A stretch of 64,000 nt of DNA from Candidatus Parcubacteria bacterium (GCA_039796775.1 JBDKJD010000001.1:5874-69873); one strand, 5' to 3'. Shown: positions 2,540 to 35,516, counted from the first letter of the stretch. Notes: a model not told the origin generated them from the letters alone. Translations and numbers: made by a program.

Positions 2540-4048
2540 CTACAAGTTACCGAGATCAAGAGTATGAGTGATACCAAGCTCTTTTACGAATTCATGTACG
2601 TGAGAAACTACGATAACCACACCATTAAAGTCATGAACAGCCTTCTGTATAGCAGGGATATGGCGGAAGTTAATATGATTAGTAGGCTCGTCTAAGATAA
2701 GGAGTCCTGGTTGCTGTAATCTCAAATAGGCGAACATAAGTAATCCTTTTTGACCTTCGGACAGGAGACCTATTTTTGAGGCTAATTGTTGACCACCTAA
2801 GAGCATGCTTGCAGCGACGCTACGTAATTTTTGATCATCTACTCTTTCGAAGACCTTAGCTAGCTCTTGATATGGACTCTTTTCAAAATCTAATGTAGAA
2901 AAGTCCTGACGATAATATCCAACTTTTATACCATCTTTGATAGAGACACCCTCTTCTTTTCGTTTTGCTATTTTTTCTAACAGTGTAGTTTTACCAATTC
3001 CATTTGGACCGATGATGTGTAACTTATCTCCTTTACGAAGCTCGAGGTTCACTTTTCTTGTCACCGGTTTATCATTATGAAGTACAGACACAGAAGAGAA
3101 TTGAACTATAACGCTCCCGATGTCTTCTTGGCAGGGGATAGTGAATGGTTTGATTGTCTTGTCTTCCTTACGCACTTCGGTCTTACTATCTTCTAATTCT
3201 TCCACTTCTTCTTTTAATTTTGCTGCGAGCTTGCGCATCTTCCCACCTTTTAGGGCGAAGAAGTTCACTTTATCTTTGTTGTCTTGTATTTCTTTTTCTA
3301 ATTGCGCATTTGCTCGTTCTGCTTTTTCGACAGCTCTTTTAATCTCTTCTACTACTTTGAAATAGTTCCCGACATATTGTTCTACTTTGTAATCCTGAGC
3401 ATTCACATACAATACCCCATGAGTGAATGAATTCAGGAACTGCGCATCGTGCGAGATAACAAGTACAGTTCTGTCATATTCTTTCATAAAACGAGTCAAA
3501 AGATCAATCCCTTGTTTGTCGAGATTGTTCGTCGGTTCATCTAAGAGTAAGAGATCTGGTTCTTGGATGAGAGCTTGAGCAATAAGTAATCTCCCTTTTT
3601 GTCCACCTGATAATTGTCGTATTTCTTTATCTAATGAAACAGAGAGTTCTACTTGTTTGAATATTTTCTCGGCTCGCTTGTCTATATCATATATTTTGGT
3701 AGTAAACGGTTCTTCCAAAAACTCTCGCACTGTCATTTCCCATTTTTTGTGAGGGATGAATTGTTTAGCGATCGCTATTTTGAGATCCTTTTGGAAAATA
3801 ATTCTCCCTTCTTCTGGTTTCAATTCATTCATAATAAGAGAGAAGAGTGTAGACTTACCAGCCCCATTCTGACCCATCAATGTGAACTTTGCTCCTTTTC
3901 TTAATACGAAGTTGCTCTCTACGAGAATCGGTTTGTTTTCTGCATATTTAAAAGTCACATCGTCAAAACGAAGTATTACTTCACCTGAGAGTGGATTGAT
4001 TTTTTCGGCCATATAACTATAGAAATTCTTAAGATTAAGCTCAAGCAT
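2540..4048 (-). CDS. ABC-F family ATPase with two ABC domains and no transmembrane region, EttA/Uup-like.
   Basis: There are two Walker A motifs (GQNGAGKST, GPNGIGKTT), two signature motifs (LSGGQKGRL, LSEGQKGLL) and an inter-domain linker. Confidence 0.85.
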   Translation of the reverse strand: MLELNLKNFYSYMAEKINPLSGEVILRFDDVTFKYAENKPILVESNFVLRKGAKFTLMGQNGAGKSTLFSLIMNELKPEEGRIIFQKDLKIAIAKQFIPHKKWEMTVREFLEEPFTTKIYDIDKRAEKIFKQVELSVSLDKEIRQLSGGQKGRLLIAQALIQEPDLLLLDEPTNNLDKQGIDLLTRFMKEYDRTVLVISHDAQFLNSFTHGVLYVNAQDYKVEQYVGNYFKVVEEIKRAVEKAERANAQLEKEIQDNKDKVNFFALKGGKMRKLAAKLKEEVEELEDSKTEVRKEDKTIKPFTIPCQEDIGSVIVQFSSVSVLHNDKPVTRKVNLELRKGDKLHIIGPNGIGKTTLLEKIAKRKEEGVSIKDGIKVGYYRQDFSTLDFEKSPYQELAKVFERVDDQKLRSVAASMLLGGQQLASKIGLLSEGQKGLLMFAYLRLQQPGLLILDEPTNHINFRHIPAIQKAVHDFNGVVIVVSHVHEFVKELGITHTLDLGNL

Positions 4049-16681: not shown

Positions 16682-16880
16682 GTGAGTGAGAGCTTACGCC
16701 CTCCATACCCGTTTCCAGGTACGGCCGTTCAAGACAAATCCCACATGATGGGTTTTTTATTTTGAACGGGCTTTTCACCATGCCAATATTGCTATTGGTT
16801 TAGGCTACTTGTATTCAGTTGTATCTATATAATAACGTAGAAAATGACAAAATAAAAGAAATTAAGTAGTATACAGGGCA

Positions 16881-32729: not shown

Positions 32730-32754
32730 CTAATTATCTACGGAAGGCAAAGGT

Positions 32755-32797
32755 CTCCCTTTATTAATAAATTAAATAGAGGGAGATTTTTATTTTG
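32755..32797 (+). terminator. Rho-independent terminator of proS.
   Basis: tctccct-N19-agggaga is followed by tttttatttt. Confidence 0.6.
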
Positions 32798-33917
32798 AGG
32801 AAATGGTATACATATGATCATATATGAATAAAAAGAGGTTTAAATAATTGTTTATTTATAAGTATCGAATTAATCTAATAGTTAAAAATACATTGTTTTA
32901 TAATGCCATAATATCAATTAATAAATAATTAAAATGGGATGCAAATTAACATCTAAAATCTACTCATAGTATAGAAAAGCGTGTCTATTACTCATACACC
33001 GCTTTGATGATGACTGAGTTATTCAAAAATATACAAAGGTTTATATAAGGGAAGCTGAGCACAAAATCAATTCTATTGCTTATAGATTTTGAAGATTATA
33101 TTTGTTCAGACTTTTTTATATATAATCTTTATAGAAGCTATCTAATTAAAGGGATATATCCATCCATGAATACAAAGAAGAGAGTATAGGTAGCCAACAA
33201 TATCGAGACCAAGGATTGTAAGGGTATATATCATTAAAGAAGGCCATGATAAGACCTATGCGAAAAAGTTAACTAGAGGCTGATAGGAAGGCACACGATA
33301 TAGAATACTTTTAGAATTAACTTTTTGAAATGATTCTATTAATAGACACTGATCAAACATGGGTCACGGAGTAGGGATATAGAGAAGTAGAACTGTATGG
33401 CTGACAGAATTATTTTTAATATAAGAGACAATGTTAAAAGTGCTTTAGATATATAGTTATTAAAAGGGGTTTTGTTATATATCTAATGTCGCACAATATA
33501 TCTTTTACGACTATATATCCTATAATAAGGCTTTACCCCTAAACTTCGTTAGCTTAATTTCGCTCACATTAAACTTGATTAACAGAAAAGATTACAACCA
33601 AGTAAGACTAGGTTATCTGGGAGTACTTACACTATAGCAACCTGTATGCATAAAGTCCTTACGGTTAATATACAAAGAAAATTAATTTCCAAGACTTCTC
33701 TTTATATAAATGGTTTAATACACCTGTACGCAAGATAGCATAATATCTTTTACATGAAAGAACGAAGTTGAAGAAATAAGAGATTAAACCTCTAACCCCT
33801 TTTCTACTGGCTTAGATTTTATTAAGACACAGCTCTTTATGTATCATCTACTAATTTTTTAACCAAAAAGCTATGATAATTTATCCTTATCTTCTTTGGA
33901 TTATACTGGGGGGTGTT

Positions 33918-34019
33918 TTACTTTATCTTATTCAAAATAATCCAAAGCCCTAGAAGTAGTCCAGCAATATATGAAGCAACAGCTAGGAGTATAAAAGATG
34001 GTAATGTGAAAGTTATCAT
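33918..34019 (-). CDS. Small hydrophobic peptide of 33 aa (MITFTLPSFILLAVASYIAGLLLGLWIILNKIK).
   Basis: It is a paralogue of the adjacent peptide, has a single transmembrane helix and ends in KIK. Confidence 0.4.
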   Translation of the reverse strand: MITFTLPSFILLAVASYIAGLLLGLWIILNKIK

Positions 34020-34047
34020 ATACGTAAGTAGTGTTAAGACTATAAAG

Positions 34048-34158
34048 TTACTTCACTTTAAGATAATAAAGATAAACTCCAATGCTTGATGTTAGTGCTC
34101 CAAAAATAAAAATAGCACTGAGTAGTAATATGGCTCCTGGTAAAGTGAAAGTGATCAT
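34048..34158 (-). CDS. Small hydrophobic peptide of 36 aa (MITFTLPGAILLLSAIFIFGALTSSIGVYLYYLKVK).
   Basis: Its first seven residues are identical to the downstream paralogue. The two genes are in tandem, 28 nt apart. Confidence 0.4.
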   Translation of the reverse strand: MITFTLPGAILLLSAIFIFGALTSSIGVYLYYLKVK

Positions 34159-34184
34159 ATCTATATAATTTTGTTTATAGTATA

Positions 34185-35516
34185 TTACAAATAACTAAGC
34201 GGGTTAAGATAACCTGATCGTGGAGCTATTGGCATGCGCATAATGGTCCCACACGCTCGACTCCTATGATTAGTTATTTGAACAGCATCAGAAGCAAATA
34301 CTGTGAAGTGTAGATGCGGTCCGGTACTGTAGCCAGTATTGCCTGAGAGGCCTATTTTTTGTCTCTGTGTGAGCGAGTCTCCTTCTCTTACATGTATAGA
34401 AGACATATGCGCATAAAGCGTGGAGAGACCATTATTGTGCCTAATGAGTACCCATTTACCATATGACGCACCACTACAAGCAGTGTCTGTGTCCCCTACT
34501 CCTATGACTGTACCTGACTCAGCAGAATATAATGTTGTCCCTGTAGGAACACCAAAATCAATACCATTATGCCCAGCTCCATTGTAAACCTGAGGATTCT
34601 TGCTCGAGAATGGAGTATTGCCAAAATATTGAGTAATACGCACGGTATCAAGTGGATACTTTAATATTCCTTTACCGTATTTTGGTAACTTACTAACATC
34701 TACTATTGTCTTTAATTTTGCTTCAATGTCAGACATTTCTGACTCTAACTCATTTTTCTTTTTCTTTCTTTCGGCTAATAGATTTTGATATACAGATTCT
34801 TTATTCTGAGTATCTTTAAGTAATTTATTTTTATCTTTAGAAGTTATTTCTACTGTTTCTTTTTGATTAGCTAAACGATTATTTAACACCTCTAAATTTT
34901 CTTTGTGTTGTTCATATGACTTCTTTTGAACATCTAATGTTAGCTTGGTATCGACAAGAGCTTGTACTCGTTCAGAAATAGCATTTGAAACTTCTGTATT
35001 TCTTGTATATGAATCAATGGCGCTCGAAAGAGTCCCACCATCTTTTAACACAAAAATATACTTAGGGATAGCCACATCATCATAATAGAACCGTCTCAAA
35101 GACTCACTCAGAGCTTTCTTATTCCTCTCAAGCACTGACTCTGTTGCATGTATCTTTTCTTCAGTGAAAGAAATATTCTGTTCAGCTTTTTCTATTCGAA
35201 GAGACGTATTTTTGATTTCTTTTAACAGTAAAGTTCTTTTGTTTTCTAACACCAACAATGCCTGTCTTAATGTTTTAGCCTCACCTTTAGTTTGGTTAAT
35301 CTTTTGAGAGAATGCTTTTATTTCATTATCAAGATCAGTAATTTGTTTTGATAGTCCATCTAAGTCTTGGCGCAATTCATCGGCTGTTTGAGCTTTTAGG
35401 TGCGTCACGGGGAAGAAAAAACTTCCATATATTCCAAGTGTCAAAAAGCATAAGAACGCCAGAGACTGTATGGCTATATTTCTTTTATGTTGTTTGTTCG
35501 AGTTGTACGACTGCAT
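34185..35516 (-). CDS. M23-family peptidoglycan DD-metalloendopeptidase with an N-terminal coiled coil (EnvC-like).
   Basis: The C-terminal M23 motifs are present (HNGIDFG...GNTGYSTGPHLHF), preceded by a long heptad-rich region and a transmembrane segment. Confidence 0.8.
   Translation of the reverse strand: MQSYNSNKQHKRNIAIQSLAFLCFLTLGIYGSFFFPVTHLKAQTADELRQDLDGLSKQITDLDNEIKAFSQKINQTKGEAKTLRQALLVLENKRTLLLKEIKNTSLRIEKAEQNISFTEEKIHATESVLERNKKALSESLRRFYYDDVAIPKYIFVLKDGGTLSSAIDSYTRNTEVSNAISERVQALVDTKLTLDVQKKSYEQHKENLEVLNNRLANQKETVEITSKDKNKLLKDTQNKESVYQNLLAERKKKKNELESEMSDIEAKLKTIVDVSKLPKYGKGILKYPLDTVRITQYFGNTPFSSKNPQVYNGAGHNGIDFGVPTGTTLYSAESGTVIGVGDTDTACSGASYGKWVLIRHNNGLSTLYAHMSSIHVREGDSLTQRQKIGLSGNTGYSTGPHLHFTVFASDAVQITNHRSRACGTIMRMPIAPRSGYLNPLSYL

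Follow-up and report, generated by a model that had tools for sequence, protein, structure and literature searches.

Probable genes for paired single-helix membrane micro-proteins downstream of an M23 peptidase gene in Paceibacterota

Two very short open reading frames lie in tandem behind the gene for a cell-wall peptidase, and the question is whether they are genes at all and, if so, what kind of peptides they encode. An earlier note on this DNA had described them as tandem ORFs on the minus strand, 28 nt apart, sharing the start MITFTLP and having basic C-termini. The 64-kb stretch of DNA analyzed here is called the window. The ORFs, designated pepA and pepB, were found in it exactly as described, to the base.

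34158..34048, minus strand: pepA, the first-position paralogue, ATG start, 36 aa, MITFTLPGAILLLSAIFIFGALTSSIGVYLYYLKVK
34019..33918, minus strand: pepB, the second-position core paralogue, ATG start, 33 aa, MITFTLPSFILLAVASYIAGLLLGLWIILNKIK
34185..35516, minus strand: M23 (LytM) metallopeptidase gene, 443 aa, Pfam PF01551 with an E-value of 7e-28

The start of pepA is 26 nt from the stop codon of the M23 gene, and 28 nt separate pepA from pepB. The first seven residues, MITFTLP, are common to the two peptides. Basic residues are present at both C-termini, pepB ending with NKIK.

Eighty related loci were retrieved via the M23 protein, which makes 81 together with the window. All stop-to-stop segments of 20–150 codons in six frames (20,781 segments) were scanned, first with an N-terminal pattern and then with a local HMM. 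At E < 0.01, the HMM gave 61 matches, the best at 5e-18, and all 61 are located directly 3' of the M23 stop codon on the M23 strand. The E-values of pepB and pepA among these segments were 3e-14 and 8e-11, respectively, and no third segment of the 64-kb window scored with the HMM. One or two copies are found in ~37 of the ~40 loci whose M23 identity is at least 46%. In Patescibacteria that are less closely related, the M23 gene is present but the peptides are not, apart from three divergent candidates (L040, L043, and L045). The curated set consists of 57 members of 31–37 aa, every one of which starts with ATG. When contigs were reached from the peptide side, all seven showed the order murG-gltX-M23-peptide(s). 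The genes further downstream differ among these seven contigs: a MarR gene with an RND pump, an HhH-GPD glycosylase gene, or a convergent proS.

The two ORFs had been taken for real genes in the earlier note. This view is supported by the homologous ORFs at the equivalent position in dozens of genomes and by conservation at the level of the protein. Among 20 members of 33 aa, the pairwise differences at codon positions 1, 2, and 3 were 0.42, 0.25, and 0.60, respectively; pN was 0.34 against a saturated pS of 0.72, and the rough dN/dS value was 0.28–0.49. Since variation is highest at the third position and pN is lower than pS, it is the protein that is under purifying selection, rather than a nucleotide element being conserved. 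In other words, the pattern differs from conservation of the nucleotide sequence alone.

These values also bear on the idea that pepA and pepB are chance ORFs in a conserved non-coding region. It could be argued for from their shortness, from the fact that they are not called in the Logan contig, and from their having no Shine-Dalgarno sequence. However, the codon-position pattern described above speaks against it, and frame, length, and the ATG codon have been kept though the DNA diverged to saturation, with HMM E-values extending down to the 5e-18 given above. Shine-Dalgarno-like motifs precede 2 of the 57 peptides and 7 of the 39 long ORFs of the window; their scarcity at the peptides is uninformative because they are rare genome-wide too. 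The chance-ORF explanation is effectively refuted, with next to no probability left to it, and pepA and pepB are very probably real, selected genes for membrane micro-proteins.

The tandem arrangement claimed earlier can be described as an old, retained duplication with an A and a B lineage. Each of the 21 second-position peptides is most closely related to a peptide from another locus that is itself second-position or single-copy, and the nearest relative of a first-position peptide is also in the first position in 15 of 21 cases. Loci with a single copy have the second-position type, and first-position orthologues of pepA occur in 21 related loci. On these relationships among the sequences, the two positions are judged to be distinct old paralogues. 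The pepB peptide of the window is a typical family member: it has a GxxxG motif at Gly20/Gly24 and, in addition, Trp26. The pepA peptide, which lacks both the second glycine of GxxxG and the tryptophan, is the most divergent member of the family. It should be added that some first-position members are not called in the source data: those in L083 (~3890–3992), L084 (~2219–2321), and L085 and L086 (3879–3995 in both) occupy an apparent "gap" of ~120 nt from the M23 gene to the called peptide, and were missed by the source gene callers.

A profile search of 5.8 billion proteins matched only 20 clusters. Among 1.84 billion representative proteins there were 45 matches, all of which are 32–48 aa long and cover nearly the whole profile. 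Because every match is short and almost full-profile, the family is in no case part of a larger protein. An exact look-up gave no sequence on record identical to pepA or pepB, and nothing specific about small proteins, M23, or dif of Patescibacteria turned up in the literature searched. No family in Pfam, NCBIfam, PHROG, or PDB rose above noise for the peptides. Matches to SpoIIM, DUF2613, LapA_dom, TadE, and PSI-K were below the cut-offs and were rejected as scattered transmembrane-helix noise. Judged from these searches, the peptides form an unnamed family limited to one clade of Paceibacterota (Parcubacteria, Patescibacteria), which are ultra-small bacteria.

One family name is nevertheless in circulation. 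JGI labels two members of 35–36 aa (P0001 and P0007) as "YneF (UPF0154 family)" (PF03672, COG3763). The likeness consists of an N-terminal hydrophobic helix with a glycine-rich packing face, followed by basic residues. However, UPF0154 proteins have ~70–90 residues with a cytoplasmic C-terminal domain, and the members of the present family, at 31–48 aa, are less than half as long. Membership was rejected: PF03672 matched 1 of 56 members, at an E-value of 0.18, and neither peptide of the window. The label is probably a transmembrane-helix artefact, and it could propagate.

What do the peptides look like? The claim that each has a single transmembrane helix was borne out by the family as a whole, since all members contain an uncharged hydrophobic stretch. 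None of the 57 peptides has a charged residue within the first 20 residues, and 56 of them have Lys or Arg within the last six. The net charge is 0.0 over the first eight residues and +1.7 over the last eight. The best-conserved part is the N-terminus, M-I/L-T-F-T-I-P-A-F, which is nearly invariant; GxxxG is present in 47 of the 57 peptides, and Gly20 is invariant or nearly so. The peak Kyte-Doolittle hydropathy over 19 residues has a median of 2.68 and a minimum of 2.10. AlphaFold, given an alignment of 21 sequences, predicted for pepB a single helix over residues 6–32 with a mean pLDDT of 92. Frame, length, and start are thus conserved together with one hydrophobic helix of membrane-spanning length, which are the features by which small membrane proteins are recognized.

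According to the positive-inside rule, the basic end of a membrane helix lies on the cytoplasmic side. Because the basic end of these peptides is the C-terminus, the predicted topology is a short N-terminus outside and a basic C-terminus in the cytoplasm. With this topology, only about 6–8 residues per peptide would be exposed outside the membrane. The peptides can be regarded as a new, apparently lineage-specific family of small single-pass membrane proteins. This means that one part of the class assignment in the earlier note, the generic "small membrane peptides", stands; the other two classes proposed there, bacteriocin and type I toxin, are not supported.

A bacteriocin would be a secreted two-peptide or leaderless type, possibly working with the M23 peptidase against host or competitor cells. 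Tandem paralogous small peptides beside a peptidoglycan hydrolase recall such systems, and some leaderless bacteriocins are in fact tandem pairs of ~43–44 aa. However, neither a double-glycine leader nor any other leader is seen, and the helix follows directly on the conserved N-terminus. The uncharged first 20 residues, with ~23 continuously hydrophobic ones, are incompatible with a soluble secreted peptide and are those of a membrane anchor. As for the neighborhood, no ABC exporter, other transporter, or immunity gene is a conserved neighbor: gltX and M23 are upstream, variable unrelated genes are downstream, and the M23 gene itself belongs to a conserved division and cell-wall cluster. A bacteriocin is therefore extremely improbable.

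Closer parallels are found among small bacterial membrane proteins that act as modulators of larger complexes in the membrane, for example Escherichia coli Blr (of the divisome), AcrZ, KdpF, CydX, and MgtS. These have in common with the present peptides a length of less than 50 aa, one transmembrane helix without a signal peptide, helix-packing motifs, a location in or beside the operon of a larger envelope protein, and a tendency to be missed by annotation. The likeness is one of description, and the family searches showed no sequence similarity to any of them. Moreover, the neighbor of the present peptides is a secreted hydrolase, not a polytopic membrane protein, and the peptides are confined to one clade of Paceibacterota, usually as an A/B pair.

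A consensus scan of the region upstream of pepA revealed a putative promoter.

34207..34179, minus strand: sigma-70-like putative promoter, TTAACC-17 nt-TATACT, overlapping the M23 gene at its 3' end and stop codon

The -10 box TATACT (34179–34184) ends 20 nt before the ATG codon of pepA, compared with the usual 6–12 nt in the family. At 28 of 36 loci, a -10-like box TA[TC]A[CA]T ends 3–22 nt before the ATG codon of the first peptide, the mode being 6–12 nt. Such a box precedes only 1 of 21 second peptides, and its frequency at random positions is 2.7%. The gap from the stop of the first peptide to the start of the second is 0–28 nt. From the position of this box, we infer that pepA-pepB have a promoter of their own. 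The same arrangement seems not to be limited to the peptides. TATACT/TATAAT-like hexamers are located 4–19 nt before the ATG codon of 12 of the 39 long ORFs in the window. Since such boxes lie near the ATG codon and Shine-Dalgarno motifs are rare, this suggests that leaderless or short-leader mRNAs are widespread in this genome.

A promoter of their own is also what would be expected if the peptides were type I toxin–antitoxin-like, or otherwise membrane-damaging, and repressed by antisense RNA. Toxins of the Ldr, Ibs, TisB, and Fst types are small, with a single hydrophobic helix and a basic C-terminus, and occur as tandem copies with their own promoters; the peptides resemble these, as well as Hok and TxpA, in size, in the hydrophobic helix, in the tandem arrangement of paralogues, in the basic C-terminus, and in the apparent promoter. 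The fact that many gene callers skip the peptides fits as well. However, no toxin family was matched in Pfam or NCBIfam at E-values up to 10, nor across 56 members at E-values up to 1. An antisense promoter, which the earlier note had proposed to look for, was not seen at any conserved position. Antisense -10-like hexamers occur at no more than 5 of 36 loci in any 20-nt bin, with no positional peak, in contrast to the sharp peaks on the sense strand; an antisense RNA that is not conserved would still be compatible with the sequences. Neither a canonical intrinsic terminator nor any terminator-like hairpin was found after pepB. Rfam gave no match at the peptide locus. Synonymous sites are saturated, and extra constraint at the nucleotide level is not visible. 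In addition, type I toxin loci show a patchy, mobile distribution, whereas the peptides are fixed behind a housekeeping gene in strict synteny, under purifying selection and with orthologous A and B lineages, in more than 40 species. We consider a toxin function improbable.

Elsewhere in the window, Rfam did find one RNA: a full-length match to the LOOT RNA (RF03000) at 16688–16806 on the minus strand, with 85.7 bits against a gathering score of 46.4.

Downstream of the peptides, one further element was strongly conserved.

33486–33513 (core 33488–33511), minus strand: probable dif (Xer) site, an invariant element with an 11+6+11 arrangement

The element is located ~400 nt downstream of pepB, within an ORF-poor, AT-rich gap of 1.45 kb extending to the convergent proS. 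When the gap between pepB and proS was compared with the related loci by blastn, only 33538..33408 (minus strand) matched. The site reads TAGTCGTAAAA, GATATA, TTGTGCGACAT, from left arm through center to right arm, with symmetry at 7 of the 11 positions of the arms. Over 26 nt, the core GTCGTAAAAGATATATTGTGCGACAT does not vary among at least 35 Paceibacterota loci, and the element is still recognizable in more distant Patescibacteria. In the 64-kb window it is present as a single copy. It lies at the junction of ~30 kb of genes on the minus strand with convergent genes on the plus strand, a point at which the local GC skew also switches sign. The identity of the site is 16/28 to the E. coli dif and 17/28 to the Bacillus subtilis dif (sequences taken from PMC3025954), a similarity that is not significant in this AT-rich window, as 94–140 other positions of it score at least 16 against the model dif sequences.

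Three other assignments of the element were rejected. As a structured RNA, it had neither an Rfam nor a tRNA match, and its fold z-score was -0.45; its stem is invariant, so that covariation is uninformative. As a replication origin, it would lack a DnaA-box cluster, none being present in the window. As a promoter element, it would have to tolerate a distance to the downstream -10/-35 boxes that differs among lineages. The surroundings are less regular than the core. The regions 32730–33485 and 33514–33917 (~1.2 kb together, 24–34% GC) contain no ORF longer than ~37 aa. These AT-rich flanks have almost no similarity to the related loci, in which gaps of 250–1350 nt are found at this place, and they may represent either plain spacer DNA of the terminus or the decayed remains of a mobile element. 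Patches of CCCC and TGTCTYTTA downstream of the core are semi-conserved.

The assignment to dif draws mainly on mobile elements. The exact 24-mer of the core was found in 17 IMG/VR contigs. In six of them (L098, L100, L101, L103, L104, and L105), blocks of ~5.4 kb encode a Zot-like ATPase, a rolling-circle Rep (G2P-like), and small coat-like proteins. These six blocks are flanked by the exact 24-mer and by a half copy in the same orientation that keeps the center and the right arm. The block of L101 (2062–7517) is preceded by murG, an ORF of 291 aa, and the 24-mer, and no integrase was detected among the scanned ORFs of this contig. A full site on one flank and a hybrid site on the other are the trace of integrase-less elements (IMEX) that exploit Xer recombination at dif. 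The blocks have the appearance of inovirus-type elements that have inserted into CPR-like genomes of low GC content at their dif-like site. Because their full-site and half-site flanks match this pattern of integration, we take 33486..33513 as the probable dif site of the chromosome, which would place the replication terminus at this locus.

The proximity of such elements raises the possibility that the peptides were once the small coat proteins of a filamentous phage, which have been domesticated or persist as remnants beside the dif site. The Ff coat proteins pVII and pIX have 32–33 residues, and the coat protein of the Pf3 type is also small. The peptides resemble these and the Pf3 major coat protein in size (~32–44 aa), in having no leader or signal peptide, in the N-out/C-in orientation, in the basic C-terminus, and in the tandem arrangement; furthermore, a probable dif site is only ~400 nt away from them, and in other CPR contigs this site serves inovirus-like elements. 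However, there is no profile similarity to the small proteins of these elements: the family HMM found no member inside the blocks of L098–L105 (best E-value 0.6), and PHROG gave no match. The peptides are on the M23 side of the full site, and the integrated elements are on the opposite side. No remnant of dif lies between the M23 gene and the peptides, neither a Zot nor a Rep gene is nearby in the window, and the flanks in the window and in the related loci are housekeeping genes, within whose synteny the peptides remain. An origin from phage coat proteins is unlikely because the elements are blank for the HMM and lie across the full site from the peptides; we regard it as very improbable.

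The upstream side of the locus is therefore of more interest for function. On the same strand, the genes are arranged in the order mraY-ftsW-murG-gltX-M23, with the M23 gene as the last long gene of the cluster. The M23 protein consists of a signal-peptide-like N-terminal segment, a coiled coil of ~250 residues, and a catalytic domain with intact HxxxD and HxH motifs; its NCBIfam matches (MepM, ShyA, and DipM) are at the level of the domain only. Comparison of the N-termini indicated a resemblance to a cleavable signal peptide, for example ...VLAQ/TADELK. The mature protein is probably secreted, and it may be without a membrane helix to share with the peptides. It should also be noted that the ORF, when it is counted from the first ATG, shares its initial 32 nt (35485–35516) with the end of gltX, and that its N-terminus is ~13 residues longer than in most orthologues (427–431 aa). 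The true start may be further downstream.

A signal peptide followed by a coiled coil and a LytM domain is the architecture of hydrolases of the EnvC, PcsB, CwlO, and RipC types, which are controlled by membrane complexes. The M23 protein is like EnvC, PcsB, and CwlO, each working with FtsEX, in its signal peptide, its long coiled coil, and its C-terminal hydrolase domain, and its position where a cluster of division and cell-wall genes ends fits a module for hydrolase control of this kind. In those modules, however, FtsX, which has four helices, is the known membrane partner together with the FtsE ATPase, and no peptide of 33 aa is known to take this role. A motif scan of the 64-kb window revealed no gene for an FtsE-like ABC ATPase.

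The M23-to-first-peptide gap is roughly 10–30 nt in most loci, and the neighborhood further downstream is reshuffled. As this short gap has been held while the downstream side was rearranged, a functional connection with the M23 peptidase or with the division and wall machinery seems to be the most economical explanation. The gene neighborhood thus points to a functional link with M23. In this explanation, pepA-pepB would be transcribed from their own promoter overlapping the M23 stop codon, as a short-leader or leaderless two-gene mRNA, and pepB would be translated from the transcript of pepA. Within the membrane, the GxxxG helices would pack against one another, against a larger membrane protein, or both. 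The peptides would then be accessory or regulatory subunits of envelope or division machinery tied to the secreted coiled-coil M23 endopeptidase encoded upstream. We assign a rough probability of 0.45 to this explanation as a whole, namely paralogous micro-proteins, own promoter, helix association, and an M23-linked accessory role. An accessory role in the envelope or in division, taken by itself, is tentative and falls somewhat short of an even chance. The link to M23 or to the divisome, the promoter, the topology, and the oligomerization are all read from sequence comparison and are to be understood as predicted. The comparison itself shows that the ORFs are coding and under purifying selection, that the peptides have the character of a membrane helix, that they are strictly linked to M23, and that the duplication is old.

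A serious alternative is that the peptides are housekeeping small membrane proteins whose partner is unrelated to M23, for example subunits or modulators in a transporter, in the Sec/YidC insertion machinery, or in lipid metabolism, and that their adjacency to M23 is simply inherited gene order. All the evidence for real, selected membrane micro-proteins fits this alternative equally well. The peptides seem to have their own promoter, the mature M23 protein is probably secreted, and other lineages have M23 without the peptides, which means that the M23 protein needs no such peptides in general. It is the small number of residues exposed outside the membrane, together with the occurrence of M23 elsewhere without peptides, that makes the alternative serious. 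On the other hand, the gap to M23 is constant while the downstream genes are rearranged, and selected co-localization explains this more simply than inertia does. In addition, searches of Pfam, NCBIfam, and PDB revealed no similarity to known small subunits. It is accordingly possible, if rather doubtful, that the partner has nothing to do with M23.

The accessory role tied to M23 can be put in a more specific form, in which the A/B pair would be a lineage-specific membrane component of division or the cell wall that, at the septum, anchors, positions, or gates either the M23 peptidase or one of its partners, for example FtsX or FtsW. In this specific form the proposal is speculative and, as it stands, unlikely. 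If it were true, ultra-small bacteria would have a way of controlling a peptidoglycan hydrolase that was previously unknown.

The genomes of Patescibacteria are very small, and little is known about how these bacteria divide and build their envelope. The probable dif site, if it is right, would mark the terminus in these genomes and offer a way to approach their mobile elements. Most gene callers skip the peptide family, as the 20 clusters among 5.8 billion proteins indicate, and micro-ORFs like pepA and pepB can be validated by comparative sequence alone. With its genes maintained by selection immediately behind that of an EnvC/PcsB-like hydrolase, where the mraY-ftsW-murG cluster ends, the pair of micro-proteins offers a concrete candidate for a lineage-specific envelope or division factor of these bacteria.
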